The notes beneath the pieces were generated by a model that ran no database searches, was not told the DNA's origin, and saw only the letters and a list, made by a program, of their open reading frames with translations. From the NCBI GenBank assembly GCA_965223185.1, contig OZ244988.1, positions 2,500,613 to 2,564,612 on the forward strand: 64,000 nucleotides of DNA, read 5' to 3'. The position numbers were made by a program, and so were the translations under genes. Positions 17,356-50,181 of the stretch are shown here, piece after piece. The DNA is from Nitrospirales bacterium (GTDB lineage: Bacteria; Nitrospirota; Nitrospiria; Nitrospirales; UBA8639). Every line of letters begins with the position of its first letter. The stretch's first letter is position 1.

Positions 17356-19869
17356 TCACTCTTTGTCTTGGGTTGTGGTGGCGAGTTGAGCGGGAGCAGA
17401 AATTCGTGCTGCAAGGTCGTGAATCATACCCATATGTCGTTCGACATCGGAAAAATCACCCGATTTGGCCGCTAATTCCAATTCATTGGCTGGTTCGACA
17501 AAGACATCGAACCCGACCGTTCCTCCTGCGCCTTTGAGCCAATGGGCCAATTGGGCCAATTCTTTAAAGTCTTTCGCTCGGCAGGCTTCATTCATGGCCG
17601 GTAACTGGTTTTCCAATCGTCCTAAAAAACGGGCAATCACCTTGGCAAACTTGGGATTGTCATGGCCAAGCCTGGAATAAATGGGGCCTGGTTCTGTTTG
17701 TGTAGTGGATGTCGAAGGCAGAGTATTTGATGTGGTTGAATCGGAAACGGGTTCTATGATTGGTTCGGCCCGAAGCCATGAAGCTAATTTTGAGAAAAAC
17801 AAGTCCAGATGAATGGGTTTGGGGATAAAATCGGTGTATCCGGCTATCTCAAGTTCTTCGCCGAATCCTTTCATGGCGTTCGCTGTTAAGGCAATAATCG
17901 GTGTCTGCACACCACGGTCACGTATATTTTTTGTGGCGCTCAAGCCGTCCATTTTTGGCATTTGCACATCCATAAGAATCAGATCGTAATCCGTGGTGGT
18001 GGCCATCTCAATCGCCATCAAACCGTTGTCTGCTTCGTCAATGGTGAGCCCGTATCCTTCCAAGACCGCCCGTACGAATTCTCGATTTTCTGGGCCGTCA
18101 TCGACCACCAAAATGTGAGATTTTGGAAAGATCCAGGTGGAAGATTCTTGAATTTCAGTTTTTTCAGGGGTAGTCATTGCCAGCTCTGGAGTGATCCAGG
18201 CCACACCGTCTGCGCTACCGCCATCGAGCGTGACCATGAATCGGCTACCTTTCCCCCGCTGACTGTCCACGGTGATATCGCCACCCATCGCACGAGCAAA
18301 TTTTCGACTGATTGACAACCCCAGACCGGTTCCTCCGAATTTTCGAGTCGTTGAGGCATCGGCCTGCACGAAATCTTCGAAAATGCGACCAAGAGCATCT
18401 TCATTCATTCCCACTCCGGTGTCTGTAATATCGACATGAAATTGGATGGCTTTCTGTTGGGTTTGTTCGGCATATGCACTCACCGTGACGCCTCCCAATT
18501 CAGTGAATTTGATGGCATTGCCGATAAGGTTCGTGACAATCTGACGGAGTTTTCCCGGATCATTGGTGATGATTTCAGGGACGGTGTCTTGGATCTGAAG
18601 ATCAAGGGTAATGCCTTTCTTTCCTGCCTGAAATCCCAGGACTTTGACGACTTCCAAAATCACTAAATAAGGATTGAAGGGGATTCGTTCGATATCAAGA
18701 CGTCCGGATTCCACTTTGGAAAGGTCTAAGATATCGTTAATCAGTTCTAGAAGGTGGGTTCCGCTGGAATGGATAATTTCTAAATGATTGAGGGTTTGTT
18801 GTGGATCACGGCCGAAATCGCGCTTCAGTAATTCCGTGAACCCTAAGATGGCGTTCATCGGGGTACGGATTTCATGGCTCATGTTGGCCAGAAAGACACT
18901 CTTAGCCTGATTGGCCGATTCAGCGGCTTCCTTGGCGCTCAATAATTCAATTTCGGCTTCCTCCAATTGAGTGATATCATCAAAACTCACGAGGACTCCA
19001 ACATATTGAGCTCCACTTCCCAGAATTGGGGAACAATTGATCATGAATGTCAGTCGAGTATCGGTAGAAATAGTCAGACGAATTCGCTGATTTTTTTGAG
19101 CTTCGCCTGTGATCAAAGCCACATGCCAAGGAAAAGAGTTTGGTTCTAACGATTGTCCTTCCGACATAGACCACTGAAAATCGTTCACTCGTCGACCTAA
19201 CAAAGCTTCCGGTGACGTGTTTAAGTCCTCGGCAAAGGCTCGGTTAGCGAGCAAAATCTGTTCTTTGTTGTCCAACACCAAAAGTCCTTCTGCCATGGTA
19301 TCTAAGGCTGATCGCACTCGTTCAGGAACGGCTTGTGAGGGGTCAAGTTGTTTCAGCATTTTCCCCAAGTACAGATAAAAGCCAAGAAAGCAAAGGAGAC
19401 CGACGAACATAAGCAATTGCGTATGTTGCCCGGTAAGCATCGCTATCCAGTTTTCATCCACCAAAGGACTGAATCGTAATTCAACACGCCCCCATTTACT
19501 CTGCCCTTCCCATATAGAGACCGACAGTTGCGTATTGCCTGAGAGATCAGATTCGTCATCGACCCAATGGGCCTCATGATCGCCAATGGTCACGAGTCGT
19601 TGCCCGGATTCGATGCGAATGGCTGCGGACAGGAGATCCTTATTCCGATTTACAACCAATCCCAGGACACCTTCAAGGCGTTCAAGATCTTTTTGAGTGA
19701 TAAAGATGGAACTATTGGCAGCGATGGCTTCTGCCAAGGCAGCACGACCCTCTCGGGCAGGTGTGATGGGATCAGGCAAAAGGCCGAATAGGCTGGCGGT
19801 CAAAAGAACGCTGGTCAAAAGGCTTACTAATCCAATAGTCAGCCGGGATTTTGTGGAAAGAAAAGTCAT
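17356..19869 (-). CDS. Hybrid sensor histidine kinase: TM, periplasmic domain, TM, PAS, HisKA, HATPase, REC and Hpt
   Basis: H-box MSHEIRTPMNAILGF, N/G boxes NLIGNAIKFT and DTGVGM..GGTGLGLSI, REC LILMDVQMPKMDG, Hpt HWLKGAGGTVG. The ATG overlaps the stop of the upstream giant gene (ATGA at 19866-19869). Confidence 0.9.
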   Translation of the reverse strand: MTFLSTKSRLTIGLVSLLTSVLLTASLFGLLPDPITPAREGRAALAEAIAANSSIFITQKDLERLEGVLGLVVNRNKDLLSAAIRIESGQRLVTIGDHEAHWVDDESDLSGNTQLSVSIWEGQSKWGRVELRFSPLVDENWIAMLTGQHTQLLMFVGLLCFLGFYLYLGKMLKQLDPSQAVPERVRSALDTMAEGLLVLDNKEQILLANRAFAEDLNTSPEALLGRRVNDFQWSMSEGQSLEPNSFPWHVALITGEAQKNQRIRLTISTDTRLTFMINCSPILGSGAQYVGVLVSFDDITQLEEAEIELLSAKEAAESANQAKSVFLANMSHEIRTPMNAILGFTELLKRDFGRDPQQTLNHLEIIHSSGTHLLELINDILDLSKVESGRLDIERIPFNPYLVILEVVKVLGFQAGKKGITLDLQIQDTVPEIITNDPGKLRQIVTNLIGNAIKFTELGGVTVSAYAEQTQQKAIQFHVDITDTGVGMNEDALGRIFEDFVQADASTTRKFGGTGLGLSISRKFARAMGGDITVDSQRGKGSRFMVTLDGGSADGVAWITPELAMTTPEKTEIQESSTWIFPKSHILVVDDGPENREFVRAVLEGYGLTIDEADNGLMAIEMATTTDYDLILMDVQMPKMDGLSATKNIRDRGVQTPIIALTANAMKGFGEELEIAGYTDFIPKPIHLDLFFSKLASWLRAEPIIEPVSDSTTSNTLPSTSTTQTEPGPIYSRLGHDNPKFAKVIARFLGRLENQLPAMNEACRAKDFKELAQLAHWLKGAGGTVGFDVFVEPANELELAAKSGDFSDVERHMGMIHDLAARISAPAQLATTTQDKE

Positions 19870-22800
19870 GGGGAAGGTCGCCGAAACCAGGGGAATAACC
19901 GTGTCCTGAATCTGGCCGAGGTTAATTTTCCGGAGAGCTCGGTTGAATGGCGTTGCTCTTCGAACATAGACTCCAGGGAATCATCTTCTAAGTCTGTGCG
20001 TTCACTCTTGCGAATCTTTTTTGATGGTGATCCCAATACCAGAAGAGGATTCACCAATTGCCAAGCCGGGACTGACGATAAGAGGGCCGTGAGAAGGACA
20101 CCACTTCGCAACAGCCAGATCACATAGCCAATGGACAATCCAGTCGTTGCAGCTATACTGGATGCCAAATAAGTTTTTTCGGTGGCCACGACATTATTGA
20201 GTGAGTCTCTGGCTTGATCGAGTTCTCTGAGAAATCCCGAAGCGTTCCCCAGGAGCGCTTGAACCTCGCTTTTCACATTCGAAAGACTTAATGGCTTTAT
20301 CAATAGGTCAAACACGCCGCTCATGCTGGTCCCATTGCCTTTATGGCTTTTCTGTGATTCAAGCAAAGACAAATTTTGTTCGATTGGTTTCCGAAGAGCA
20401 TCCTCTTTTTCGGGCCCATCGGTCGTCGTGGTCGAAGTGGATTTCGAAGAAAATCCTTGAGATGTAGAGATGAAATTCATGCCAATTACAGGCTGTTCTT
20501 CATCAGGAATCCCCTCGTCTGGAGGCGGCGAAGGGGAGGGAGATGGACTTGGTGAAGGAGGAAGAACAATGACCGGAGCATTGGTCACCGTGACGGCAAG
20601 GGCTTGGGTGTCGATCAATGTGCCATCCGAGGCTTGTACGATCACGTCATAGACATTGTCGGCGCCGACATCGTTTGGCGCGCCAAGGTTTGGCGCGCTG
20701 ATGAAAGACAGAGCCCCTGTATTCGGGTCGATAGAGAACAAGGCTGCATCGGCTCCGCCGGTTATGCTGTAGGTAAGGGTTGCACCTTCTGCATCAAAGG
20801 CATTGACCGTGGTGACAGCGGTATTACCTTCGATGACCGTAGCGGTACCAGTGGTCCCACCTCCATTGGACGTAATGATGGGGGCATCGTTTTGTGGCGT
20901 AATCGTGAGGCTCACGGTCACGGTATTTGAAGTAGCTCCGGCCAGGTCCCTGATCGTATAGGTAAAGCTGTCGGAAAGAGTTTCAGATCCATTGTGGGTG
21001 TATTCCACAGTCCCATTGGTATTGATGTTTGTGATAGCGCCATTGGTGGGCCCTGAGACAATGGTGATACTGGTCAAATCCAATCCGTCGTCAGCATCAG
21101 TATCATTAATTGCCAGATCAAGGGTATTCACAGACCCCTCATTTACGGTCAAAGCATCAGCAACTGCGGTTGGCGGATCATTAACTGGATTGACATTGAT
21201 AGTTGTTCTGGCTGGAGCACTGGGGGCCGTACCGTCGTTGACGGTAACGTCAATCAATCGGTTCCCTCCGGTAGGCGTGGCGGCATCTGTATGTTGGTAT
21301 TGAATTGCCCTGATCAGCGTTTCTGTTTCAATTTCAGTAAAGGTTCCCCCGCCCTGTTTGGTGATAGTCATGGTGGCTGTGCCGGCTCCAGTGGTCAGCA
21401 CCACGCGATAATTCCCTCCACTGGTATTTTGTCCTGCCACCGCTGTGGCCAAGGCGAACACGTCTCCATCCAACAGGAGTGTTTCACTGTTACCATCCAA
21501 TAATCCGGTGATAGCCAGAGTGACGGTGGTAAAGGTGGGACTATCCAAATCGTTCAGGTCAGCATCTGAATCGGCAATGGCGGTGGGTGCGTCCCCTTCG
21601 GTGAACGTGAATTGATAATCATTGCCTGTGGCTCCTGAGCTATCGTTTAAGTCCAAATCGATAGTCGGGATGATCGATGAACTGGCTTCGTATGCTCCGA
21701 TATCCACATTGGCATCACGTGTAGCACCACGTTGATCTACGGTGGGAGCCCCCAAATTGGCACCGGCGTTGATGGCAGGACTTCCGCCCAAAAGGCTATG
21801 TGTCTGAGTTGGTCCGCCGTTGTCGGCCAAGGCCCCTAAAAGCGGGTCCATTCCGTCTAATGGATCTCCCAAACCGGCCGTCCCGTCGCTATCGATGTTA
21901 TTTCCCAGGGAGTTGAGTGTACTGCTGGCATTGCCGCCAGTATTAGAAGCCAAAATAGTGTTTCTGAGGATAGCCGATCCACCGCCGGCTTGATTAATCC
22001 CACCACCATTGCTGGCTGAGTTAAATGCGACTGTGGAGTTGGTCAACGTGACCGTCGATCGTGTGAAAATCCCGCCGCCATTGCTCGAAGCGGAATTTCC
22101 ACTTATGGTGGAATTCGTAACCTGGGTTACCCCTCCGGAACTCAGATTGAGTCCAGCACCCACGTTCGCGCTATTCCCCGAGACCGTGACCCGGTTAAGC
22201 TCTAATGGGCTAGACGTATCAAGGCCGCCACCTTGGGAACCTGCCGTGTTTCCGGTAATGGCCACGTCTCGAAGTGTTACTGTCCCTCCGCCTGATCGGA
22301 TTTGGATTCCTGCCCCTTGGGTGGCACTACCATTTTGAATGGTCAGATCCGAAATAGTGACTGTTTGACCATGAATATCAAGGACCCGATCGGATCCAAG
22401 TCCATCGATGATAGTGGTTTGGGCACCAGCTCCGGTGATGATGACCCCCTGACGAATGTCCAGATCTCCAGTTGCGCCCAAATCTTCTGAGGTTCCTGTC
22501 AACGACAGCGTATAAGTCCCAGCCGGGAGCATGATGGTATCCCCACCTGAGCCTGCGTTTACTTGAATGATGGCTTCGCGGAGCGAGGTCACTCCATCGC
22601 CACCATTAATCACGTCGGCGAAGGTATCGACAGTGATGACCGCCAGTTTCCCCACCCACTTTTCTTGTGTCTCAGCATTGACTGTGACTTGTGTCTCAAT
22701 CGTTCCTGTTCGATATTCCAGGTCCCAATTCCCGTGATATTGAGGGTTGCCGGTGTCATCGATACTGGCGGCGACATCAGTGCCGGTTAATTCAGCTAAG

Positions 22801-23585
22801 AGTGTGGCCGCCGCTTGGCCAATTTCGCCCTTGCCGAAATTGCAGCCGTAGATGAGGAAATCCGCATCATCTGTTAAGGCTTGGTTGATGATGGCGAGAT
22901 CATTGGCGTATTTCTCTTCCATGGATTTTTGAGTGAGAAGCCCTGTGCCTAACCGCAATTCACCTTGATTGCCATGCGAAATTATATGGATGGCGTCAAC
23001 GTCGGTGCGTTCGCTCAAAACTTCTGCAATTTGGTCGACGCCATCTCGCGTGGAATCCAGCAAAACGGCCTCAGCTCCGGAGTCTATTCCGAGTAGTAAG
23101 GTGTGGTAATCCTCGACATTGGTATCGATAAACACGATTTCTTTCCGATCGGAGAGAGGCGGCGTCACTGTCGACAATGCAGCGTAAAGGTCAATGTCGC
23201 CTATCAAAGGGTCTGAAGGGATTTGATCCTCAGCTCCGATTGCTGAAAAGTCTTGATCGAGCGTAGTCATATCTTGTGGGTCTTGTTGCTGGAGAACTTC
23301 GGCCCCGGTGACCAAGGCCGCACCGTCAAACATGATTCTCGGTTCAAGAGCCAGAAGTGTGCCGAGACCACTGGGCCGGGGAAGGGGATATGTTGCTTCG
23401 CCGCGATCGCGCTTGGAGATATGTGGACGGGTGGCCGCTCTTTGTCTTGTTCGATTATTCAAAAGGCGAGTTGATTGGTTGGGGAGAGTGTCTGTGGCTG
23501 ACCCATAAATAGGCCAAGTCGCACTCATCCCCAACAGGGCGATTACGACAGTATTCCCGCCTAGATACACGTATTCCCAGAGCAT
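19866..23585 (-). CDS. Large repetitive surface protein 1 (1239 aa): LEPRIMFDGA motif, DUF4347-like domain, SLREAI right-handed beta-helix, cadherin-like modules, Pro/Ser linker, C-terminal double-TM anchor
   Basis: The ATG at 23585 is preceded by GGAGGAA. Motifs: LLALEPRIMFDGAALVTGAEV; SDRKEIVFIDTNVEDYHTL...IHIISHGNQGELRLG (DUF4347-like); TSLREAIIQVNAG...DIGAYE (beta-helix / choice-of-anchor-Q-like); NDPPTAV and NDAPIITS cadherin-like modules; PPSPSPSPSPSPPP; TGLSIGYVIWLLRSGVLLTALLSSVPAWQLVNPLLVL. Confidence 0.9.
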   Translation of the reverse strand: MLWEYVYLGGNTVVIALLGMSATWPIYGSATDTLPNQSTRLLNNRTRQRAATRPHISKRDRGEATYPLPRPSGLGTLLALEPRIMFDGAALVTGAEVLQQQDPQDMTTLDQDFSAIGAEDQIPSDPLIGDIDLYAALSTVTPPLSDRKEIVFIDTNVEDYHTLLLGIDSGAEAVLLDSTRDGVDQIAEVLSERTDVDAIHIISHGNQGELRLGTGLLTQKSMEEKYANDLAIINQALTDDADFLIYGCNFGKGEIGQAAATLLAELTGTDVAASIDDTGNPQYHGNWDLEYRTGTIETQVTVNAETQEKWVGKLAVITVDTFADVINGGDGVTSLREAIIQVNAGSGGDTIMLPAGTYTLSLTGTSEDLGATGDLDIRQGVIITGAGAQTTIIDGLGSDRVLDIHGQTVTISDLTIQNGSATQGAGIQIRSGGGTVTLRDVAITGNTAGSQGGGLDTSSPLELNRVTVSGNSANVGAGLNLSSGGVTQVTNSTISGNSASSNGGGIFTRSTVTLTNSTVAFNSASNGGGINQAGGGSAILRNTILASNTGGNASSTLNSLGNNIDSDGTAGLGDPLDGMDPLLGALADNGGPTQTHSLLGGSPAINAGANLGAPTVDQRGATRDANVDIGAYEASSSIIPTIDLDLNDSSGATGNDYQFTFTEGDAPTAIADSDADLNDLDSPTFTTVTLAITGLLDGNSETLLLDGDVFALATAVAGQNTSGGNYRVVLTTGAGTATMTITKQGGGTFTEIETETLIRAIQYQHTDAATPTGGNRLIDVTVNDGTAPSAPARTTINVNPVNDPPTAVADALTVNEGSVNTLDLAINDTDADDGLDLTSITIVSGPTNGAITNINTNGTVEYTHNGSETLSDSFTYTIRDLAGATSNTVTVSLTITPQNDAPIITSNGGGTTGTATVIEGNTAVTTVNAFDAEGATLTYSITGGADAALFSIDPNTGALSFISAPNLGAPNDVGADNVYDVIVQASDGTLIDTQALAVTVTNAPVIVLPPSPSPSPSPSPPPDEGIPDEEQPVIGMNFISTSQGFSSKSTSTTTTDGPEKEDALRKPIEQNLSLLESQKSHKGNGTSMSGVFDLLIKPLSLSNVKSEVQALLGNASGFLRELDQARDSLNNVVATEKTYLASSIAATTGLSIGYVIWLLRSGVLLTALLSSVPAWQLVNPLLVLGSPSKKIRKSERTDLEDDSLESMFEEQRHSTELSGKLTSARFRTRLFPWFRRPSP

Positions 23586-24037
23586 CCTATTCCTCCATCT
23601 CCCTTTTCGGATTCTTCAATGACGATCTGGAAACCGTTCATGAAAAAAGGTGATTTCTCGTGATCATTAGTGGCGGTTAGGCGAAGTTGATACCCGATAT
23701 AAAAATACGTGATTGGAAAAGAAATTACTAAAAGGATCAAGGAGTTAATTCCACATCGAAAAAAACCGAAAGACTGGACTGGAGTCCTACCAACCGTGAG
23801 GAAACGAGCGACGTGAGGAGGAGAGGAAGGGTATCTGTGAATGAGGGACCTTTATGCATTGAGGAAATGAAAGATAGAAATGAGTTGAGCAGGGGTCGAT
23901 GAGCCAAGCGCGGTGGGATTCAGGGCTTGGAAAATGTCGGGCTGTGAACGAGGTCGACCACTGGGATGGTGGGTTGTCTGCATGCAATGACAGAATGTGG
24001 ATAGACTCGATCACGTTTGGGTGTATCCAGTACACAT

Positions 24038-25636
24038 ATGGATAAGGCGAAGTTGGAGATTTCAAGAAAAAGACAACGCATCATACAGGCGTTGGGGAGA
24101 GGATTCTTGTGCCTGTTATCAGGGTGTGCGGTGATCCCGGTTCCACTTTCTCCTGAAGACCTTGAAAAGCGGGTAGACCATGATCTGAGTCAACTCACCC
24201 AGTACCAGGAACCGGTAACTCGTCCGATTACCTTATATGAAGCCATGGCCCGGGCGGTTCGGTTTAATCTTGAAGCGCGGGTACAAGGATTGAAAGAAAT
24301 GGTCGCGCATCGTCAATTGGATCTGGCTCATTATGATTTGTTGCCTCAAGTCGTCGCAGATGCGGGCTATGCCGGACGAAACAATTTTAGTGGGGCAAGC
24401 AGTCGTTCCTTAACCACCGGCCGGGAATCTTTGGAAGCTTCCACTTCAGCCGAAAAAAATATTTTTAATGCCAATTTGACCTTGAGCTGGGATGTGCTGG
24501 ATTTTGGATTATCCTATGTGCGGGCTCAACAGGCCTCCAATGATGTGCTGATTGCCGAAGAAGATAAACGTCGTATTGCCAACCGAGTCGTTCAGGAGGT
24601 GCGGTCGGCCTTTTGGAAAGCATTAGGTGCTGAGCGGGTATTGGGGCGCCTGTCGTTTCTCGATGATTGGGTCAATCATGCCCTGACAGAAACACAGCTT
24701 ATTCGTTCCAAGGCGTTAGAGACCCCTCTCACCTCATTACAGTATGAACGAGAATTGTTGCAGGCCCAACAAGAAATTCAGCAACTCCATCAGGAAATGT
24801 CCGTGTCCAGAATTGAATTAGGGGAACTCATGAATTTAGCACCAGGAGAGCCGTATGAACTGGTGCGACCGGAACGGACTCTTCCGGTTTACAAAATTAA
24901 CGCGAAATTAGAGGAATTAGAACGTCGAGCATTGTTAAACCGTCCGGAACTTCGAACGGTGGACTATCAAAAACGGATCAATGCCAAGGAAACCAAGGTG
25001 GCCCTCTTAGAATTGTTGCCGAGTCTCAGTGGGTATTTTGGAGGAAACTGGGATAGCAATAGTTTCCTGTTTAACCAAAATTGGCTGAGTTATGGGGCAA
25101 AAATTAGTTGGAATTTGATGAATGCCTTCCGGTACCCCGTTCGATTGCAAGTGATTGATGCCCAAAAAGAAGTATTGGATATGCAAAGTTTGGCCCTCAC
25201 GATGACGATTATGACCCAAGTTCATGTTGCTGTCGTGCAATATGAAGCGGCGTTGGCCGATGTCAAATTAACTCAACGGTATTTCCAAACCCAGTTGAAA
25301 ATAGCCGACCATGTTCAGCAGTCCTGGGCGTTGGATCGCCTCAGCGAGCATTTGGTGATTCGAGAAAAGGTTCAAGGCCTCCTGGCAGAGCTCCGCTATG
25401 AAATGGCACTCGCGAAACTGGAAATGGCCTATGCCAATGTGTTGGCCGCGATTGGGGAAGATCCGTTCCCGGTTAATATCACGGATGATGAGGTGGAACA
25501 TTTGGCCCAGGAACTTCAGCAGCGTTGGGAATGGCTGGCTCAACAGGCTTCCGTTTCATCATTGTCGCCTGAATTGGGTCAGAGAAAGAAATCTGTGCAG
25601 AGTTCAGCACAAGAAGGAGGGAATGTCCAACCATGA
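24038..25636 (+). CDS. TolC/NodT-like outer-membrane factor lipoprotein
   Basis: The ORF-track start at 24017 is a TTG; the first ATG is at 24038. Lipobox LCLLSGC. Two long coiled-coil/beta repeats typical of OMF proteins (LTLYEAMARAVRFNLEARV..., LNRPELR...). Its stop overlaps the next ATG (ATGA at 25633-25636). Confidence 0.8.
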   Translation: MDKAKLEISRKRQRIIQALGRGFLCLLSGCAVIPVPLSPEDLEKRVDHDLSQLTQYQEPVTRPITLYEAMARAVRFNLEARVQGLKEMVAHRQLDLAHYDLLPQVVADAGYAGRNNFSGASSRSLTTGRESLEASTSAEKNIFNANLTLSWDVLDFGLSYVRAQQASNDVLIAEEDKRRIANRVVQEVRSAFWKALGAERVLGRLSFLDDWVNHALTETQLIRSKALETPLTSLQYERELLQAQQEIQQLHQEMSVSRIELGELMNLAPGEPYELVRPERTLPVYKINAKLEELERRALLNRPELRTVDYQKRINAKETKVALLELLPSLSGYFGGNWDSNSFLFNQNWLSYGAKISWNLMNAFRYPVRLQVIDAQKEVLDMQSLALTMTIMTQVHVAVVQYEAALADVKLTQRYFQTQLKIADHVQQSWALDRLSEHLVIREKVQGLLAELRYEMALAKLEMAYANVLAAIGEDPFPVNITDDEVEHLAQELQQRWEWLAQQASVSSLSPELGQRKKSVQSSAQEGGNVQP

Positions 25637-26490
25637 GATACCGATTTTGGGGGTCTTTAGGTTTTTTAGTCATCAGTTTGGTGCTGATGACAGGAGAGAA
25701 GGGTATCGGAAAAAGTAAGGGTATCCAGTCTTCCGATCTTAATGCCGTTCGTGGGGTTGTGAAACCAACTGAAGAAGCTGTGATCTCGAGCGAATTACAA
25801 GCTCGCGTCAAACGAATGCCTTTTCGTGATGGACAATGGTTCAAAAAGGGAGATCTGTTGGTTGAATTCGATTGTTCGAAATATTGGGCCGAACTGGCCG
25901 CCGCGAAAGCAGAGCTTGAGGCTCGAGAGAAAACCGCAGAAAACAATCAGGCACTCGCCAAACTCAATGGCATTGGGCAATTGGAGGTGGATGTATCCGA
26001 AGCCGAAGTCAAGCAAGCCAAGGCTGCCGTGAGAAGTGCAAGTTTGGCGGTACGGCACTGTAAAATTACGGCACCATTTTCAGGCCGGGTGGTGAAAGGA
26101 CTTGTCAATCCTCATGAAAGTGTGAATCCGTACGATGAGGTCATGAGTGTGTTGAATGATAAGACCTTCGAAATCGAATTGATTCTCCCTTCCTCGTCAT
26201 TGCGATGGGTGACCAAAAAAAGTGTCTTCAAGTTTTATATCGATGAAACCCAGGAGTTGTATCTCGCCGAAGTGGTGGAGATTGGGGCTCGGGTGGATCC
26301 GGTGAGTCAGACGATCCGGGTGTTTGGACAATTCAAGGAGCAACCCAAGCAGGTCCTGGCCGGTATGAGTGGGAGCGCAAGATTTTTGGATCGAACGGTG
26401 AAGGAAGAAACTTCAAAGCCGAAATTTAAACCGAGCACGTCTCCGCAACCGTCAACAGCGGCATCAACGATTCACAGTTCTCTAAAATAG
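25633..26490 (+). CDS. HlyD/membrane-fusion-protein-like periplasmic adaptor (short, 285 aa)
   Basis: N-terminal TM/signal, a barrel-sandwich (biotinyl-lipoyl-like) sequence (VKPTEEAVISSELQARVKRMPFRDGQWFKKGDLLVEFD ... ITAPFSGRVV) and a short coiled-coil insert. Confidence 0.75.
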   Translation: MRYRFWGSLGFLVISLVLMTGEKGIGKSKGIQSSDLNAVRGVVKPTEEAVISSELQARVKRMPFRDGQWFKKGDLLVEFDCSKYWAELAAAKAELEAREKTAENNQALAKLNGIGQLEVDVSEAEVKQAKAAVRSASLAVRHCKITAPFSGRVVKGLVNPHESVNPYDEVMSVLNDKTFEIELILPSSSLRWVTKKSVFKFYIDETQELYLAEVVEIGARVDPVSQTIRVFGQFKEQPKQVLAGMSGSARFLDRTVKEETSKPKFKPSTSPQPSTAASTIHSSLK

Positions 26491-26542
26491 TAGCATCTTG
26501 GAAAGATCTTCATCTCAGAAAGAGAAGTAGACAAACGGCGAT

Positions 26543-28006
26543 ATGAGTCATCCAATGTCGAACGGTCGTCAAGCTTCTGGAGGATCACCGGTCATGGAGC
26601 CTCCCGATGCAAAGACCTCTACCGCTTCTCAAACATCGAGAGAGCCAGCCAGCCAATCCGAAAAAGGAGGGGACATCGATCCCCATCTTTTGGTCGCTCT
26701 CCTTCAATTAGAAAGCCAAGCGCGAACGGCGCAAACGGTCAAGGAGCTATGTTTTCTGCTAGCCAATGAAACCCGGCGTCTCGTCAGTTTTCGCCAGGCC
26801 TGCGTGTTCTCAATGGGTACACAATTGCGAAAGACCTGCCAGGTAGAAGTCGTGTCGAGTGTGGCCGTGGTGGATCGCAAGTCCCCGATGGTGCAATGGA
26901 TTGAAGAGGTCGTATCAAGTCTCTGGGACAATCAGTCCTTACAAGCCCCGTGTCATTTGAATGTTCAACAATGTCCGAAGCATCTTCAAGCCGATTGGAG
27001 GCGATTCGCCTTTCCGCATGTCTTATGGTGTCCGATTATTTGGGGCAATCAACAGGTGTTGGGCGGAATGTGGTTGGCGAGGGAACGCCCCTGGCTGGAA
27101 GGGGAAATCCAACTCATTCGGCGTTTTGCCGAAACGGTGGCGCATGCCTGGAATGCGTTAGGGAAAACGAAAACGTCAGTCAAACATCTGACCATATCCA
27201 AGCGCTGGGTGTGGATGGGTGTGGCGTTGTTGTTTGCCGTCATGTGTTTTCCGGTTCATGTATCAACGTTAGCGCCCGTCGAAGTCGTGGCGCGAGATCC
27301 CATTGTGGTCACCGCACCGCTTGATGGGGTCATTGCGGAAATTTTGGTGCAACCGAATACGGTCGTTCAAGAAGGAAGCACCTTGTTTCGGTATGAGGAC
27401 ACGAAGTTTCGCAATGACTATGAAGTGGCGGAAAAGAATTTAGCCGTGGGATTGATGGAATACCGGAAAGTCACACAAGGGGCCTTTTTTGATGACGAAA
27501 CAGGCGCGGGAATGCCGGTACAGGCTTCCGAAGTCCGCCTAAAAGAGGCCGAGCGTGATTATGCGTGGGAAGTGCTGCAACAGGTGGAAGTCAAATCGAC
27601 TCGACAAGGTATTGTCTTGTTTGGGGATAAATCGGATTGGGTCGGAAAACCCGTGGTGATCGGTGAACGGATTATGGAAGTCGCCGATCCCAAGGAATAT
27701 GAGTTGAAAATTGATCTACCAGTCGAAGATGCAATCGTGCTTCATGAAGGAGCGGACGTTGATGTGTTTCTTGACGCGAATCCTCTGAAGGCCATTCCTG
27801 CGACCCTCACCCATGCCAGTTATCACGCTGAAGTATTGCCGACGAATGAATTCGCCTACCGTGTGAAAGCCGAAATCACCGAGCAACCGGAATCCATCCG
27901 CATTGGCTGGCAGGGGACAGCGAAAATCTATGGAGAACGGGTGTCGTTGTTCTTCTATGTGTTTCGTCGCCCCCTGTCGGTCCTGCGCCAAACGATAGGT
28001 TGGTAA
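26543..28006 (+). CDS. Membrane protein with a cytoplasmic GAF-like N-domain, one TM and an HlyD-like periplasmic adaptor domain
   Basis: TM WVWMGVALLFAVMCFPVHV followed by VVTAPLDGVIAEILVQPNTVVQEGSTLFRYED, the adaptor lipoyl-like motif. The GAF-like call for residues ~60-200 is based on general appearance only. Confidence 0.7.
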   Translation: MSHPMSNGRQASGGSPVMEPPDAKTSTASQTSREPASQSEKGGDIDPHLLVALLQLESQARTAQTVKELCFLLANETRRLVSFRQACVFSMGTQLRKTCQVEVVSSVAVVDRKSPMVQWIEEVVSSLWDNQSLQAPCHLNVQQCPKHLQADWRRFAFPHVLWCPIIWGNQQVLGGMWLARERPWLEGEIQLIRRFAETVAHAWNALGKTKTSVKHLTISKRWVWMGVALLFAVMCFPVHVSTLAPVEVVARDPIVVTAPLDGVIAEILVQPNTVVQEGSTLFRYEDTKFRNDYEVAEKNLAVGLMEYRKVTQGAFFDDETGAGMPVQASEVRLKEAERDYAWEVLQQVEVKSTRQGIVLFGDKSDWVGKPVVIGERIMEVADPKEYELKIDLPVEDAIVLHEGADVDVFLDANPLKAIPATLTHASYHAEVLPTNEFAYRVKAEITEQPESIRIGWQGTAKIYGERVSLFFYVFRRPLSVLRQTIGW

Positions 28007-30138
28007 TGGCACTCAGTCCTCCTCAAGAAGATTTGCCGCTGCCCCCCCTTCGAGATGACTTGCAAATCCTGGCAGGCACACCCACGGCGGAAGGCGTTCC
28101 CACCTGGAATATCTTAGACCCGGTTCGGCATCAATATTTTCAAATAGGCTGGGCCGCGTTTCAATTACTGTCTCAATGGCATCTGGGGTCGGCTGCTCGC
28201 TTGATTGAAGTGGTCTCGAGTTCGACGACCGCCAAGGTCACGCAACGAGATGTCATGGAACTCGTGCAGTTTCTCTACCGTCATAATTTGACTCGCGATG
28301 CGCAAATGGGAGGAAGCAAAGGGCTCTTTGCGCAAGCCGAACAGACCAAACAACATTGGTTGCTGAAACTGCTCCATACCTATCTCTTTTTTAAAATTCC
28401 ATTGTTCAATCCCGATCGTTTTCTGCAACGAACTCTGCCGGTTGTGACTCCATTGTTTACGAAGACGGCCTTGATAGGGGTGGTGACGTTGGGGATCATC
28501 GGATGTATCGGGGTGTTGCGGCAATGGGAATCCTTCGCCAATACATTTTTATATTTTTTCTCCCCACAAGGGCTGATGGCGTATATGGTGGGATTGGCTG
28601 GGATCAAGATATTGCATGAGTTAGGACATGCCTATACGGCGGCGCGATATGGATGTCGGGTCCAAACCATGGGAATCGGGTTCCTCATTATGGTGCCCGT
28701 TTTGTATACGGATACCACGGATTCCTGGAAACTCACATCGCGGAAACAGCGGGCCGCTATCGCGGCGGCAGGAACGGTCGTGGAATTGGGCATGGCCATG
28801 ATCGCCACCTTTTTCTGGCATTTGTCTCCGGATGGCGTCGTCAAGAGTGTGTTGTTTGTCCTGGCCTCTACAAGCTGGATCATGGGCTTGTTGATCAATT
28901 TAAATCCTCTTCTGCGTTTTGATGGGTATTATGTGTTGTCCGATTGGTTGGGGGTTCCCAACCTGCAATCCCGCGCCTTTGCCTTTGGACAATGGAAGAT
29001 GCGTGAATGGCTGTTCGCCTGGGGTGACGATCCACCGGAAGCCCTCCCTCGAACTCGGCAACGCATCCTCACAGGCTATGCTTGGGCGATCTGGGTATAC
29101 CGGGCGTTCATGTTTTTAGGGATTGCGGTCATGGTCTACTATTTCTTCTTCAAAGTGTTGGGACTTCTCTTGTTTGTCGTTGAAATCGGATGGTTCCTGG
29201 CCTGGCCGGTCTATCAAGAAGTGGAGGTATGGTGGAAACGGCGAGAGGAAATCGTGCAATCCTGGCGAGGGCGGGTTGTCGGAGCCATAGTGGTGGTCCT
29301 GCTCCTTTTGGGCCTGATTCCTTTAGATCGAACGGTGGGCCTTCCGGCTGTGTTAGAGGCCCGCGATCGCGCGACCATATTCTCTCCGGTGCCGGCCAAA
29401 ATTACCGAAGTCCGTGTGCATGAAGGGCAACAGGTGGCACAAGGCGATATTTTGATGCTGTTGGAATCTCCAAGCCTGGAGCAGAATATTCATATGGTGG
29501 AAAAACGGTTGGCGGCGTTGGAAACCCGTATGCAGCGTGAAGCCGTCTATCAAGATGATCGCGACGATCACCAAGTATTATGGGAAAGCATCCGGGGGGA
29601 ACGAAAAGAATTGGAAGGGTTGCAGAGAATTCGTGAACAGTTAACCCTGCGCGCGCCGTTTGCGGGAAGGGTGACGGATACGGCGTCCTCGTTACATGAG
29701 GGGCGATGGATTAATTCCGATCTTCCTCTCGTCCATCTCGTCAATCTGGAGCGCATGGTGGTCCAAGCCTATGCCACGGAGGATCAGCAGAATCGTCTTA
29801 TGTCCGGCAATGAAGGTTGGTTCTATGCCGATGATCCGGTCCTTACGGCTCGGCGCAGTCGCGTGCAAGATCTTCGTCAGGTGGATGAATCGCAGTTTAC
29901 GCTGACGTATTTGGCTTCGCTGTATGCCGGCCCTGTGCCCGTTCGACAAGATGAGCACGGGAAAATAAGGCCTGAATCGTCGATCTATCGTGTGACCCTA
30001 GCTGTCGAGGCTGATGAAGAAGAGACCTGGACGCAAGCGGTCCGAGGCATCGTGCATGTCAGAGGAGAATCCCGAAGTATCGTGAAACAACTCTGGGAGC
30101 ACGTCGCTGCCGTGGTCATCCGGGAAAGCGGGATGTGA
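28006..30138 (+). CDS. Polytopic M50 (site-2-protease-like) metalloprotease domain fused to a C-terminal HlyD-like adaptor domain
   Basis: HELGH at 28615-28629 and NPLLRFDG at 28903-28926, the two S2P active-site motifs, sit within hydrophobic helices. Further TM segments follow, then IFSPVPAKITEVRVHEGQQVAQGDILMLLESP, a coiled coil and LRAPFAGRVTD (adaptor-like). The ORF-track start at 28000 is a TTG. The ATG at 28006 overlaps the upstream TAA by 1 nt. Confidence 0.8.
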   Translation: MALSPPQEDLPLPPLRDDLQILAGTPTAEGVPTWNILDPVRHQYFQIGWAAFQLLSQWHLGSAARLIEVVSSSTTAKVTQRDVMELVQFLYRHNLTRDAQMGGSKGLFAQAEQTKQHWLLKLLHTYLFFKIPLFNPDRFLQRTLPVVTPLFTKTALIGVVTLGIIGCIGVLRQWESFANTFLYFFSPQGLMAYMVGLAGIKILHELGHAYTAARYGCRVQTMGIGFLIMVPVLYTDTTDSWKLTSRKQRAAIAAAGTVVELGMAMIATFFWHLSPDGVVKSVLFVLASTSWIMGLLINLNPLLRFDGYYVLSDWLGVPNLQSRAFAFGQWKMREWLFAWGDDPPEALPRTRQRILTGYAWAIWVYRAFMFLGIAVMVYYFFFKVLGLLLFVVEIGWFLAWPVYQEVEVWWKRREEIVQSWRGRVVGAIVVVLLLLGLIPLDRTVGLPAVLEARDRATIFSPVPAKITEVRVHEGQQVAQGDILMLLESPSLEQNIHMVEKRLAALETRMQREAVYQDDRDDHQVLWESIRGERKELEGLQRIREQLTLRAPFAGRVTDTASSLHEGRWINSDLPLVHLVNLERMVVQAYATEDQQNRLMSGNEGWFYADDPVLTARRSRVQDLRQVDESQFTLTYLASLYAGPVPVRQDEHGKIRPESSIYRVTLAVEADEEETWTQAVRGIVHVRGESRSIVKQLWEHVAAVVIRESGM

Positions 30139-30324
30139 TCAAGTTGAAAGGAAGAAGGAAAAAGTGAGAAGTGATGTCATACAGGTTCCAGTGACTTCTC
30201 ATTCTGGTCGACTATCACGTGGAGACCAAGCGATGAATCCGCTCCTTTTGCAGGCCTTTTTGTTGACCTGTTGCGACTTTCCTCCTCTCAGCGGTATGCT
30301 CCTGAATAAGAAAAGGAGAACGCA

Positions 30325-30806: not shown

Positions 30807-30858
30807 GTAACCTTTACAAACAGCCCCCTGATCAGTGAGAAGCAAGCTTATTCATTTC

Positions 30859-33766: not shown

Positions 33767-36700
33767 ATGAATAAGATGATGTGCAAGCCTGCCACGCTGG
33801 ATGCCGTGAAAGAGAAGAAAGCCGATACGGCGAAGACTAAATCCGGCACCCCAAAAAAGAATAAAGCCAAAGCCCAACAAGAAGAAGCCGAACCCGTGAG
33901 CGGCATCGGGCTTCTGGTCGCACTCGAGCCGCGCATCATGTTCGATGGCGCGGCGTTGGCCACCGGAGCCGAAGTCATCCAAGACACCACGACCCAAGAC
34001 CAAACGGAAATCCCCGGCATCGACGGGGAGACCGCCACCGATACCACTTCGACTGACTCCTCTGACAGCGAGGCCCTCTGGTCATCTGGCCTCTCGCTGT
34101 CTGCCCCATCCGATCGCAAAGAAATTGTGTTCATTGACACTGCAGTTGATGATTATCAGACACTCATGGAAGGCATCGACCCCAATGCCGAAGTCATCCT
34201 TTTAGATCCTACTCGGGACGGCATCGAACAAATTGCAGAGATTCTTGGAGACCGCTCGGATATTGATGCCGTCCATATTATTTCACATGGAGATCCCGGG
34301 GAACTGCAACTTGGAACGGGCACGCTTAGCTTCGCGTCGATGCAAGAGGAGTATGCCGACGAACTGGCCACTATCAGCCAAGCCCTTTCCCAAGAGGCTG
34401 ACCTGCTGGTCTATGGCTGTAATTTCGGAGAAGGCGGCTCTGGTACGGAAGCGGCTAATTTATTGGCGGCACTCACAGGGGCAGATGTTGCGGCGAGTAG
34501 TGATCTGACCGGAGCAGAGGCGCTGGGCGGCGACTGGGACCTCGAAATGCAAACCGGCACGATTGAGACAGACGTGATCGTGGATGAGCAAGCCCAAGAA
34601 GTTTTTACCGGCGTGTTAGATATCACGACGGGCTTAGTAGCGGACTGGACATTTGATGCGGATGCTACTGACTCAAGCGGCAATAGTTATGACGGGACCT
34701 TAACGGGTGATGCGTCAATTGATACCGCAGATGCCACAGACATCGTCGGGGAGGGAAAACTTTCATTGGATGGCACTGGAGATTATGTCGATCTGGATGC
34801 GCATATCTCTGCGTTTAGTGGACTAACCGAAGGCACCATTGCAGGATGGGTCAAAGTCACCGATTCGGGAGAAAATATTCTCTTCGGCATTTCAGATTCC
34901 GGCGACTCCCTTAGTCTTGCAAAGTTTGGCATTGAGGCCGGGGGACAAGTGAAATGGCTGATTGGTGAAGGTGGAGGAATTGATGTCCTGGCGTATAGTA
35001 ACCAAACGGTCAATGATGGGGCCTGGCATCATATCGCCATTACCGTCAATTCCAGTGGTACGACCATGTATATTGATGGACAAGTGGCCAGCGTGACGTA
35101 CTCGGGTGGAAGTGCGTCTTCGACGAATTTCTTTTCCACAATTAATGACATTGATGCTGCGGACATTGGACGCTCTTTGCGTGGAGGGGTGTCTGAGGCT
35201 GAATTCAATGGCTTGGCTGATAACGTGAAGATCTATGATCGTGCTCTGAGTTTAGGAGATATTCAAGAACTCGTGGCTCAGGCCCCAACATCATACGGTG
35301 AAATTGGGCATTGGACCTTTGATGCAGATGCCACGGATTCGAGCGGGAACAACTACGATGGCACACTCACCAACGGAGCTATTATTGATACGACCGATAC
35401 GACGGATCAAGTTGGTGGCGCCAAACTGTCGTTGGATGGGACGAATGATTACGTGGATCTCTCGAGCCACGTGTCCAATTTTAGCAGTCTCAATGAAGGG
35501 ACGATTTCGGGATGGATCAACACCACCGGGACCTATGAAACAATCTTTTCAATCTCAAGTACGGCTGATGCGAATAGCTATGCCACCTTATTCGTAGGGG
35601 CTTCGGGATACCTCACGTTTGAAGTGTATGAAAATGGCTCTCCAATTTTGGCCGTCTACAATGGCAATGGGGACACGATTAATGATGGTACGTGGCACCA
35701 CGTGTCGATCTCAATGAGTGCGACAGGAAATAGTCTCTACATAGATGGACAACTGATTGCACCAGGCGATCTCATCTACGATACAGGGTCAGCATCCACC
35801 AGTGCGTTCTTTAATGATGTCTCTGGATTGGACGCTATGGCGGTCGGTCGCAATGAAAACTCGAGTGGAGGACGCTGGTATACCAGCGGATTGATTGATG
35901 ATGTTCGCGTACATAATCGAGCATTAAGTACGGCAGTTATCGCTCAGTTAGCGCAAGAAGCGCCTGTTGCCAATGACGATACGGCCACCACCACGGCGGG
36001 CACGCCGGTGACGATAGACGTGAAGTCGAATGACACCGACCTGGACAGTGAAACCATCACCGTCCTGGATGTCGGTAATCCTACCAACGGTATCGTGGTC
36101 AACAACGAAGACGGCACGGTCACCTACACTGCGAATGGAAACTACACCGGGTCCGATAGTTTTAGCTACCTCACAGCCGATCTGGACGATACCATCAGCT
36201 ATTGGCGGCTGGATGGGGATGCCACTGATGCGGTGGGCAGTAATGACGGAACCATCACCGGAACGACCACCGTCGAAGGCGCGTATGGAGACGCCTTGAG
36301 CTTCGATGAAGTCGATGATAAGGTGGTCATCTCCGACTTCTCCTACGGGAATGAATTCAGCCTGTCGTTTAAAATCAAGATCGATGACAACAGTGGGTCC
36401 TCATTCCAGTACATCTACAGTCATGGGGATATCAACTCTGCCAATAGTTTGAATGTTTTTCTCGGGGAAACTTCATCGGGTGCATCAAATCTCCTCCGCA
36501 CCGTTATTCGAGACACCAACGATACCCTAGAAAATTCTGCCTTGGACTTCGATGTCAGCAGCATCATCGGGGATGGTCAATGGCATACCTACACGCTAAC
36601 AGTCGCGAATGGGGTAGGATCGAAAGTGTATTTGGATGGGGTCCTGAAGAATACCGATACGCGTGGCGGGGAGGCCTTTGATCCTGGAACGGATCTCTAT

Positions 36701-48664: not shown

Positions 48665-50181
48665 ACCGTTCCACTCCCTTGCTTTGGATCAGCTTTGGAC
48701 TGGTCTCTCTCACTCTGAGTATTTTGCTCATGAGTGATCTGGCCGTGGATTTAGTCCCTAATCAAGCTAAAGAAATTTTTGAATACCGGCAAAAATACAG
48801 TGAAGCGTTGGCTGTTCAATATTCCCTACTGGCGGAAAATGGGGATAGCCGAGCTATTCAGGAGGCCTTTGACCTTTTAATTGAACGGAATGATGACATC
48901 CTATCTGCTTCTGTGATTTTAGCCAATGGTGAGACCTTGGCTGTTTCTGGTCGACACCATCAACTCTGGAAGCAACCTTCAGGAGACTCGTCCACCCCCG
49001 ATCATATTCAGGTCCCAATTTATAATAGCCGCGAGCGGTGGGGAACGGTTCAATTACGATTTCGATCTCTTGAGAATAAAGGGTGGCTCGATTGGTTGAG
49101 GGATCCATGGATTCAGTTTTTGGGTCTGGTCGTGGGGTCTGGGTTTATGGGTTATTTTTTGTATATGAAACGCACATTACATCAACTGGATCCCAGCTCA
49201 GTAGTTCCTTTACGTGTGAAAGCGGCATTTGATGTGCTGACAGAAAGTGTGGTGCTGCTCGATAATGGTGAACGGATTGTTCTTGCTAATCGAGCTTTTG
49301 GAGGTGTGGTCGGAAAGAATCCTAATGAGCTCGTTGGTACACGACTTGATGAATATCACTGGAATTCGGTTTCTCCCGCTCCACTCATGACCATCTTTCC
49401 GTGGAAGACGGCGCGCAAGGAAAAATGCGTGGAATTGGATTGTCCTATGAGCCTCACCGACGTTTCGGGAAAAGTGTTAAAGTTTCGGGTGAATTGTACG
49501 CCAATTCTTAATGATCGCGAACTTGTCCAAGGTGTGTTGGTTTCCTTTGATGATGTGACCAGGTTGGAAGAAACGATTTTGGAACTTGAATCATCCAAAA
49601 TGGAAATGGAAAGTCTCGCAATGCGGGATCCGCTTACGGGCATTTTCAATCGACGTGCTTTATTTGAGGCGTTTGAGGATCTTCATCAAGTGAGTATTGC
49701 AGAGTTGGGGGATTATGGCTGCATCATGTGTGATATTGATCATTTTAAATCGTTTAACGATCGTTTTGGTCATGCGGTTGGGGATCAGGTGATTCAAGTC
49801 GTTGGCAAAATTCTTTCCACCACGATTCGGCCAACCGATATCATTGGTCGATACGGAGGTGAAGAGTTTTGCATTTTATTACCTGGTCAAGGTCCGGAGG
49901 AGACGGCCATTGCCGCTGAACGTCTACGTCTTGCTATTTCGGCTCGTGCCAGCCAAGCCATACGCACGACAGGAGATAACCGTATTACCATGAGCTTTGG
50001 AACGTCCTGTTTATCTTTGGGCGCCTCTGACCCTTTGGAATTGGTCGATCAGGCGGATAAGGCTTTGTATGTTGCAAAACAAGCTGGCCGGAACCAGGTG
50101 GGACAATGGACTTCCGAAGGTCCCCAAGCCGGTCTTCCTATTACATTAGAAGTAGAGAGTTTTGCAGGGTCAGTCGACTAG
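48661..50181 (+). CDS. Membrane sensor diguanylate cyclase: TM, periplasmic domain, TM, PAS and GGDEF
   Basis: Active-site RYGGEEF with an RPTD (RxxD I-site) five residues upstream, plus DIDHFKSFND. The first ~310 aa are paralogous to the N-terminus of the hybrid kinase at 17356-19869. The ATG overlaps the giant gene stop (ATGA at 48661-48664). Confidence 0.9.
   Translation: MNRSTPLLWISFGLVSLTLSILLMSDLAVDLVPNQAKEIFEYRQKYSEALAVQYSLLAENGDSRAIQEAFDLLIERNDDILSASVILANGETLAVSGRHHQLWKQPSGDSSTPDHIQVPIYNSRERWGTVQLRFRSLENKGWLDWLRDPWIQFLGLVVGSGFMGYFLYMKRTLHQLDPSSVVPLRVKAAFDVLTESVVLLDNGERIVLANRAFGGVVGKNPNELVGTRLDEYHWNSVSPAPLMTIFPWKTARKEKCVELDCPMSLTDVSGKVLKFRVNCTPILNDRELVQGVLVSFDDVTRLEETILELESSKMEMESLAMRDPLTGIFNRRALFEAFEDLHQVSIAELGDYGCIMCDIDHFKSFNDRFGHAVGDQVIQVVGKILSTTIRPTDIIGRYGGEEFCILLPGQGPEETAIAAERLRLAISARASQAIRTTGDNRITMSFGTSCLSLGASDPLELVDQADKALYVAKQAGRNQVGQWTSEGPQAGLPITLEVESFAGSVD

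Follow-up and report, generated by a model that had tools for sequence, protein, structure and literature searches.

Two described systems are closely related to the genes considered here. The one is a gene module reported by Kamneva, Poudel & Ward (2015; PMC4452313), in which GAF-HlyD, Peptidase_M50-HlyD and HlyD proteins, sometimes joined by an OEP protein, are encoded around a secondary SecA_DEAD gene in Planctomycetes, Verrucomicrobia, Proteobacteria, one Chlorobi and one Nitrospirae. These authors proposed a machine related to type I secretion systems (T1SSs), in which SecA_DEAD would supply the ATPase and M50 perhaps a pore through the membrane, and no substrate was linked to the module. 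The other is MpaP, of daptide biosynthesis (bioRxiv 10.1101/2023.03.08.531785), in which a recognition element (RRE) for peptides that are made on ribosomes and modified after translation (RiPPs) is fused N-terminally to an intramembrane site-2 protease (S2P), and which removes a leader possessing a conserved N-terminal motif. The subject of this article is a SecA-less set of four genes at positions 24017-30138 of a 64,000-nucleotide stretch of DNA from a Nitrospirales bacterium (GCA_965223185.1, contig OZ244988.1, positions 2,500,613 to 2,564,612 of the forward strand), that whole stretch being referred to as the window. The set encodes a TolC-like outer-membrane factor (OMF) along with three membrane-fusion proteins (MFPs), one of which is fused to an S2P, and it is situated between genes for two giant adhesins.

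As judged from sequence, it seems to us an evenly balanced question whether these four genes specify an apparatus that spans the envelope and serves specifically the LEPR-XLL/DUF4347 giants beside it, i.e., one that would recognize and clip a leader in the course of giant export or display, with input from a GAF domain and from cyclic di-GMP (c-di-GMP). Bolder, and thus offered more tentatively, as something that falls somewhat short of probable, is the suggestion that this is a new secretion or display system of diderms. That is, three MFPs in a hetero-oligomer, along with a TolC-like channel, would export giant adhesins possessing an N-terminal LEPR signal that is read by an RRE and cut by an S2P, and would do so without a dedicated ATPase or pump. 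The literature searched, including papers citing Kamneva et al., holds no functional study, nor any on the SecA-less variant or its LEPR-XLL/DUF4347 link. The SecA-less, LEPR-linked variant is undescribed there, while the sister module has been known bioinformatically since 2015.

The four genes and their products

The four genes, together with the motifs and domains of the last of them, are as follows.

24017..25636, + strand: OMF, a TolC-like lipoprotein of 539 residues (lipobox LLSGC, residue 36; two stretches match Pfam OEP, E=2.3e-30)
25633..26490, + strand: MFP1, a plain periplasmic adaptor of 285 residues, signal-anchored at its N-terminus (HlyD_3, E=1.5e-14; NCBIfam RND_mfp)
26543..28006, + strand: GAF-MFP, 487 residues (GAF, 24.8 bits, gathering score 22.4; HlyD_3, E=1.9e-15)
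28000 (or ATG at 28006)..30138, + strand: M50-MFP fusion, 712 or 710 residues (Peptidase_M50, PF02163, 39.3 bits, gathering score 27.2; Biotin_lipoyl_2; HlyD_3)
28063..28281, + strand: cytoplasmic beta3-alpha3 domain of the fusion, residues 22-94, a putative, PqqD-like RRE (AlphaFold2, AF2, model)
28615..28629, + strand: HELGH, zinc-binding catalytic motif, residues 206-210, in transmembrane helix (TM) 2 near its cytoplasmic end
28903..28926, + strand: NPLLRFDG, second S2P motif, residues 302-309, with the third zinc ligand, Asp308
29326..30135, + strand: periplasmic adaptor moiety of the fusion, i.e., lipoyl domain, short alpha-hairpin (helices 491-515 and 524-546) and beta-barrel (AF2 model)

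A prior sequence-only reading had reported four co-directional open reading frames (ORFs) at these positions, a lipoprotein OMF, a 285-residue adaptor, a GAF adaptor and an M50 fusion, and hidden Markov model (HMM) scans bear that description out, with OEP, HlyD_3/Biotin_lipoyl_2 and Peptidase_M50 all matched. Its 711-residue fusion does possess a polytopic M50 half and an adaptor C-terminus, the length being instead 710 to 712 residues. Both S2P motifs likewise are intact where that reading had them. The genes are closely packed, with the MFP1 start overlapping the OMF stop by 4 nucleotides and the M50-MFP start overlapping the GAF-MFP stop, and translation of the OMF may begin in truth at a Met codon at 24038. 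A scan of 23400-33900 found promoter-like sites at the level of shuffled sequence and terminator-like sites in excess of it (18 vs 10.7 ± 3.2), none of the latter at operon boundaries.

Three proteins of the set carry HlyD_3/HlyD_D23 domains (Pfam), as is expected of periplasmic MFPs, and MFP1 also exceeds the cutoff of NCBIfam RND_mfp (120.5 vs 94.9 bits). The GAF-MFP consists of a cytoplasmic GAF domain (residues 68-202, about 26744-27148), one TM (residues 223-241, by hydropathy) and a periplasmic adaptor, and its GAF match has a stronger counterpart in the sister, SecA-linked module (E=1.4e-14). Neither ABC, RND, MFS nor SecA-like proteins were found among the scanned window ORFs of at least 150 residues. 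To that extent the claim of 'no Walker motif or transporter' stands, i.e., as regards transporter and NTPase families. A Walker-A-like string, GEKGIGKS, nonetheless occurs in MFP1 (residues 21-28). This was rejected as a Walker A motif, as it is found in the periplasmic linker just past the signal anchor of a protein that matches no NTPase family.

The protease-adaptor fusion

The fusion is, on sequence grounds, a member of the M50/S2P family, combining an HExxH motif within a TM helix, a downstream Asp motif and a polytopic core. The last of these is seen both by hydropathy and in the AF2 model (mean predicted local distance difference test, pLDDT, of 80.9), where approximately seven TM helices span residues 139-439. 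In alignments of 17, 27 and 72 homologues, extending down to 34% identity, H206, E207, H210, N300, F307, D308 and G309 are invariant, with P303 invariant in two of the three alignments and almost invariant in the remaining one. The SecA-linked paralogue likewise keeps HELGH and NPLLRFDG, and HELGH is found also in a copy carried by Escherichia coli plasmids.

Of the curated families, one of leader peptidases comes closest to the N-terminal half. Residues 38-395 match the NCBIfam model daptide_HExxH (MpaP, NF041824, model positions 20-357) with 155.8 bits (E=1.7e-45), which by profile comparison makes this half a homologue of MpaP, not an equivalog. Lesser matches are to YydH/LiaK (E=1.7e-6) and RseP (E=0.008). 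Ahead of the membrane core, the AF2 model places a cytoplasmic beta3-alpha3 domain (strands 22-25, 36-40 and 45-49; helices 51-58, 65-75 and 82-94), most of which, from residue 38 on, falls within the MpaP alignment. This putatively is an RRE-type peptide-binding domain, and a paralogue of the fusion has at the same position a weak Pfam PqqD match (E=9e-4, below the gathering score).

Foldseek, queried with the model of the entire fusion, returned adaptor structures alone, i.e., none for the protease or the N-terminal domain, with MacA (3fpp/5nik) and EmrA (8zal) as the top matches (E about 1e-13) and with the C-terminal part resembling MexA too. A PDB profile search with the fusion similarly finds MFPs, there being no structure of the M50-MFP family in the PDB.

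Distribution and gene order

Homologues of the fusion are numerous. A word-indexed search yielded more than 3,798 of them, the best being from Nitrospirota, and HMMER against 1.84 billion cluster representatives yielded 12,908 clusters (50% identity) at E<1e-3, of which 3,692 remain at E<1e-30; nearly all of the top 150 are full-length, i.e., about 700 residues. Five Nitrospirota contigs carry the same four genes, 47-78% identical, with DUF4347 giants before or after them. Scanning one genome per species located at least 600 places of which the best 80 were taken with 10-kb flanks, their ORFs being called and then classified using HMMs built from the window proteins. These 80 loci come from Nitrospirota, Alpha-, Beta-, Gamma- and Zetaproteobacteria, Desulfobacterota, Candidatus Scalindua (Planctomycetota), Magnetococcales and Pelagibacteraceae (SAR11).

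The order OMF, MFP, GAF-MFP, M50-MFP is seen in 51 of 87 loci, with most of the remainder cut by contig ends or possessing the OMF elsewhere, e.g., on the far side of the giant. The N-terminal domain of GAF-MFP is found in 81 loci. Where at least 3 kb is available on both sides, 50 of 52 loci have within 5 kb a DUF4347 protein, or else an ORF of 900 residues or more. Clustering of all unclassified ORFs in the related loci uncovered no other conserved partner, and no transporter (RND, ABC, MFS), ATPase or SecA gene is a conserved neighbour in the 80 orthologous loci, nor are sigma/anti-sigma genes. What does recur are 5'-truncated giants, PAS/GGDEF/EAL proteins (15 loci) and unrelated importer ATPases. 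Giants of the truncated type are labelled 'DUF4347 domain-containing protein' by the Prokaryotic Genome Annotation Pipeline (PGAP) in Azospirillum brasilense Sp7. Far from being a local oddity, that is, the set has been kept together as a unit across phyla. Two suggestions made from the window by itself, of a missing pump and of a tie between the module and its neighbouring giants, thereby extend to relatives, the former to 80 orthologous loci of many phyla in which no pump is conserved and the latter with strong support from conserved synteny (50 of 52 loci).

The unit also is found on E. coli IncF (IncFIA/FIB) plasmids, where five genes (giant, TolC-like gene and three MFPs) sit between ISKpn26 and IS1B, as on NZ_CP081687.1 (L089, L091 and L095 among our loci). 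The island, which 24 of 5426 complete E. coli genomes carry, has a giant of 4459 residues that begins with MTTIKNRRLRPRAHRFALESRQLFDGAA (...ALESRQLFDGAA), which is followed by a DUF4347-like domain. The 69-kb E. coli plasmid holds no pump or ATPase candidate, and a diguanylate cyclase is encoded elsewhere on it. The module plus its giant are, in other words, a mobile, self-contained unit. As E. coli to our knowledge is without a SecA paralogue, the island, should it work there, would rely on housekeeping functions alone, and this five-gene mobile island makes the question of energy directly testable.

The flanking giants

On either side of the four genes is a giant, and the features of the two are these.

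19866..23585, - strand: giant 1, 1239 residues, divergent from the OMF gene (DUF4347, E=5.1e-53; beta-helix and cadherin domains)
23319-23351, - strand: LEPR-XLL motif of giant 1 (NF012209, 18.9 bits, cutoff 17)
22653-23141, - strand: DUF4347 domain of giant 1 (Pfam)
20061-20132, - strand: C-terminal anchor of giant 1, a hydrophobic segment
33764..48664, + strand: giant 2, 4966 residues, the presumed substrate (DUF4347, E=1.2e-58; Laminin_G_3/LamG; cadherin/Big_9 repeats; C-terminal anchor)
33923..33955, + strand: LEPRIMFDGAA, N-terminal motif of giant 2 (NF012209 LEPR-XLL, 16.1 bits, slightly under the cutoff of 17)
34124..34618, + strand: DUF4347 domain of giant 2, caspase/legumain-like (clan CD), with His/Cys pair (Pfam, AF2, Foldseek)
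48395..48466, + strand: C-terminal hydrophobic anchor of giant 2, GFVAWMVRGGALVAGLMASLPAWR

Over its 11 residues LEPRIMFDGAA is identical in the two window giants, and in Nitrospirota loci L001, L004, L005 and L006 the position of giant 2 is unchanged. More generally, L-E-[PSQ]-R-x-[ML]-F-D-[GA]-A is found near the N-terminus of all 49 of 49 DUF4347 ORFs of the related loci, and by column of a 68-sequence alignment the conservation is L in 65/66, E in 66/66, R in 66/66, F in 62/68 and D in 68/68.

Behind this motif comes DUF4347, which AF2 models with a pLDDT of >90. Foldseek against the PDB returned, in order, Tce1 (9qpe_G), legumain, caspases 3/6/7 and GPI transamidase. The first of these, 9qpe, is a DUF4347 effector of type VI secretion (T6SS) in complex with Hcp3, and is the only solved relative of the domain. 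H136-G137 comes after one strand and C180 after the next, an arrangement shared with clan CD peptidases, and among 68 sequences C180 and G137 are each conserved in 68, H132 in 67 and H136 in 59. Given this modelled fold along with these conserved His and Cys residues, the giants probably carry a cysteine protease or transpeptidase domain directly behind the signal. Neighbourhoods retrieved using DUF4347 fragments were uninformative, one being a pseudogenised region (L007) and another a contig end (L008).

Giant C-termini have conserved features as well. A hydrophobic, Gly/Pro-rich segment is found approximately 85-95 residues from the C-terminus in both window giants. Many proteobacterial giants share instead a tail motif, [KR]P[GSA][LF][ST]xQ[LVM], approximately 30-37 residues from the end (L030, L044, L049, L058, L064, L070, L077, L082, L085, L089 and L090), and those of SAR11 and Colwellia have a related PLxxQL...YG tail. 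The C-terminal tail may possibly be a second recognition or retention signal.

Within giant 2, at 43014-47332, a 357-bp unit is repeated in tandem 12.1 times with 100% identity, i.e., twelve identical cadherin-like modules of 119 residues, with a GC content of 0.58-0.63 as compared with about 0.48 for the window. This indicates very recent expansion or gene conversion and also carries a risk of assembly collapse.

Signalling genes next to the giants

Both giants are translationally coupled to signalling genes, which in the window are the following.

48661..50181, + strand: PAS-GGDEF diguanylate cyclase (GGDEF, E=6.4e-43), its start overlapping the giant 2 stop (48661-48664)
17356-19869, - strand: hybrid histidine kinase (Pfam), its start overlapping the giant 1 stop (19866-19869)
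15320-17179, - strand: RR-GGDEF-EAL protein (Pfam)
13647-14870, - strand: EAL-HDOD protein (Pfam)

The three minus-strand genes are downstream of giant 1, and an HDOD gene also is found nearby. The coupling of giant to GGDEF gene is seen as well in L004, and the PAS-GGDEF cyclase is a probable regulatory partner of giant 2.

A possible mechanism

Were the module to act upon the giants by way of their N-termini, then the following sequence of events may be envisaged. By analogy with MpaP, the cytoplasmic beta3-alpha3 domain would bind the N-terminal LEPR motif, the peptide considered as ligand of fusion residues 1-135 being GLLVALEPRIMFDGAALATGAEV. The S2P active site, near the cytoplasmic end of TM2, would then clip the N-terminal signal during hand-over of the giant to the MFP/OMF conduit. 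This logic would be like that of peptidase-containing ABC exporters, albeit with an S2P in place of C39 and with no ABC domain. Judged by context, either display or release of the adhesin may be gated by the GAF domain together with the c-di-GMP enzymes encoded alongside. Candidates for the driving of export would be the proton-motive force, a ratchet supplied by folding or Ca2+ binding of the external cadherin-like repeats, or SecA, whether housekeeping or paralogous, acting in trans.

A number of observations weigh against such leader-clipping export. None of the components belongs to the known translocases, nor are S2P proteases known to conduct proteins. All of the functional inference is built upon synteny and homology. 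As to homology, the match of the fusion to MpaP stops short of the equivalog cutoff of 300 bits, and direct tests for PqqD in the N-terminal domain were negative, both in a Pfam scan of 27 family members and in a PDB profile search, with hhalign against an approximate PqqD sequence likewise giving a probability of just 0.2. The RRE assignment consequently derives from MpaP homology in combination with predicted topology. As to the signal, the LEPR segment is not a TM helix, unlike a classical S2P substrate, and in some giants it starts only 4-16 residues from the Met, i.e., with 3-15 residues preceding it, so that a 'leader' cut would fall downstream of the motif. Conserved giant C-termini (the proteobacterial tail and the Nitrospirota anchor) would fit with export C-terminus first, as in T1SSs. 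DUF4347 proteins occur also away from the module (L007), one of them being a T6SS effector. Lastly, Ca. Nitrospira defluvii, which is the Nitrospirae species of the 2015 survey (SecA_DEAD-linked loci NIDE2719-2723; S2 Table of PMC4452313), has in addition the SecA-less, DUF4347-linked module (FP929003.1, 3088684-3110804; L011). The paralogous systems are thus able to coexist, and the SecA paralogue could there act in trans.

Alternative explanations

The same genes might serve not for export but for Lap-like retention and release. Here a separate route would carry the giants out with the C-terminus leading, their LEPR-DUF4347 end would become lodged in the MFP/OMF scaffold as a tether, and the S2P would cut that tether upon a dispersal signal transmitted via GAF or c-di-GMP. 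The conserved tails of the giants agree with this idea, and the folded N-terminal alpha/beta domain could serve as the plug, as in LapA-type retention modules. The c-di-GMP enzymes coupled to both giants, and which recur in 15 loci, also are in its favour, as is the diguanylate cyclase of the E. coli plasmid. Retention nevertheless strikes us as unlikely. Neither in the 80 loci nor on the E. coli plasmid is a T1SS ABC transporter linked to the module, and the LapBCE ABC system, LapG and LapD are not among the conserved neighbours, with a weak, sub-threshold match to a LapD model reflecting generic GGDEF/EAL domains. An OMF of its own plus three MFPs exceed, furthermore, what a tether needs, and the homology of the protease is to a leader peptidase rather than to a release protease.

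The sequence-only reading had proposed two cleavage sites, the N-terminal LEPR region and the C-terminal anchor, and it is to the second of these that another explanation appeals, i.e., that the S2P clips the anchor and so frees giants from the inner membrane during or after export. Canonical S2P substrates are TM helices with helix-breaking residues, which the conserved Gly/Pro-rich segment of both window giants resembles. Anchor homologues are confined, however, to Nitrospirota giants plus one Nitrosomonas locus, while the giants of Proteobacteria, SAR11 and E. coli lack a C-terminal TM segment even though their M50-MFP keeps its catalytic residues. Anchor clipping hence would be, at most, a lineage-specific addition, and as a general account it is improbable. 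The LEPR motif, by comparison, is found wherever the N-terminus of a giant can be seen, and only it is as universal as the catalytic residues; this, along with the leader-peptidase homology, favours the N-terminal site. Least probable of all, indeed barely credible to us, is that the giants are neighbours by coincidence, with the module being either a signalling device based on regulated intramembrane proteolysis (RIP), as had also been proposed, or a small-molecule efflux system whose transporter is encoded elsewhere. It is true that RIP signalling (RseP, SpoIVFB) is what M50 proteases are best known for, that PGAP annotates the adaptors as 'efflux RND transporter periplasmic adaptor subunit', and that MFP1 scores above the RND_mfp subfamily cutoff. 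The conserved neighbours, however, include no sigma/anti-sigma pair and no RND, ABC or MFS gene, the similarity to RseP is marginal in comparison with that to RiPP leader peptidases (E=0.008 vs 1.7e-45), and giants not only adjoin the module across phyla, in 50 of 52 loci, but also travel with it onto E. coli plasmids. The RIP proposal we accordingly set aside.

Other neighbouring genes

Certain additional genes are found near the module, in the window or elsewhere. Two sets of ATPase genes were considered as module parts and rejected: an ABC ATPase cluster (11 loci), which consists of oligopeptide and other importer ATPases at varying distances, and an AAA ATPase encoded three genes downstream, which is found in only 3 loci of the Rhizobiaceae group. 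In the latter (L023, L032 and L033) the genes 3' of M50-MFP specify two unknown proteins (about 362 and 391 residues), the AAA ATPase (636 residues), DUF6638 and DUF2333. Across that clade the two unknowns are present in 5 loci and AAA ATPase/DUF6638/DUF2333 in 3. Pseudomonas loci L063, L073, L075, L077, L080 and L087 have a GNAT acetyltransferase gene directly 3' of M50-MFP, and their OMF gene follows the giant rather than preceding the MFPs.

In the window itself, three toxin-antitoxin pairs (HepT/MNT, PIN/MazE-AbrB and PIN/Phd-YefM) occupy 30199-33067, between the M50-MFP gene and giant 2, with part of this set found at the same spot in L001 and L002. At the window edge, 61309-63885, is encoded an 858-residue protein with similarity to the BREX BrxC/BrxD-like ATPases.

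Significance

Giant adhesins shape biofilms, particle attachment and host colonization, and all of their known routes of export (T1SS, T5SS, i.e., type V secretion, and Lap-type), so far as we are aware, use an ATPase or the Sec/Bam pathway. The M50-MFP family is very large as well as ecologically prominent, and it runs counter to the energized-transporter pattern of tripartite systems. If leader-clipping export is correct, then thousands of bacterial lineages would possess an envelope machine whose sole polytopic inner-membrane part is a peptide-recognizing intramembrane protease. Among the lineages concerned are ones that are environmentally dominant (Nitrospira, Nitrosomonas, SAR11) and ones that are tractable (E. 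coli plasmids, Pseudomonas, Azospirillum), as well as rhizobia. S2P proteases would gain a secretion function, the LEPR-XLL signal and DUF4347 domain, so far unexplained, would be given a pathway, and leader recognition of the RRE type would no longer be limited to small RiPPs but would reach proteins of 5,000 residues.

Comparison with known systems

With T1SSs and other tripartite pumps, with peptidase-containing ABC exporters and with the LapA/LapBCE/LapD/LapG system, the module has in common that an OMF plus MFPs constitute its periplasm-spanning part. It shares further with T1SS and Lap systems the nature of the presumed cargo, a giant repeat adhesin (cadherin/Big), as well as a c-di-GMP context and an exporter-coupled protease. 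It differs in having three different MFPs, an S2P instead of C39 or LapG, and a signal that is N-terminal (LEPR). It differs also in that no energized transporter, whether ABC, RND or MFS, is encoded along with the OMF and MFPs, and this is so in the window, in the 80 loci and on the E. coli plasmid.

To MpaP the fusion is similar in its HExxH core and predicted N-terminal beta3-alpha3 domain, and the MpaP substrate too has a conserved N-terminal recognition motif. MpaP has no C-terminal MFP, however. The presumed substrates of the window module moreover are 1,200-5,000 residues long and belong to a diderm envelope, and no daptide biosynthetic genes or short precursors are found nearby, the neighbours being instead OMF, MFPs, giants and toxin-antitoxin genes. 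As for DUF4347, it is like clan CD peptidases and Tce1 in fold (Foldseek probability 0.97-1.0) and in the placement of its His-Gly and Cys residues, but identity is just 8-23%, TM-scores are 0.25-0.42, and the domain is here located at the N-terminus of a giant adhesin.

A close relation is that to the SecA_DEAD module, with which the set shares GAF-MFP, M50-MFP, one more HlyD-type protein and, in some cases, an OEP protein, as well as HELGH and NPLLRFDG. There a truncated SecA directly follows M50-MFP, whereas none does so in the window or in the 80 orthologous loci. A pump-less assembly, as had been claimed, therefore holds across the orthologous group, but was overstated insofar as the paralogous GAF-MFP/M50-MFP module of 2015 has a SecA-like ATPase (PMC4452313). 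The fusion proteins of that module are about 25% identical to the window protein. One such SecA-type locus, on a Rhodobacteraceae plasmid (L092), encodes in turn a giant ORF (4212 residues), GAF-MFP, M50-MFP and SecA (DEAD, PP_bind, P-loop), and this giant, in contrast to those considered above, has no LEPR motif in its first 360 residues. A SecA gene in the sister module, together with a giant upstream, nonetheless suggests that the scaffold served ancestrally for the translocation of polypeptides.

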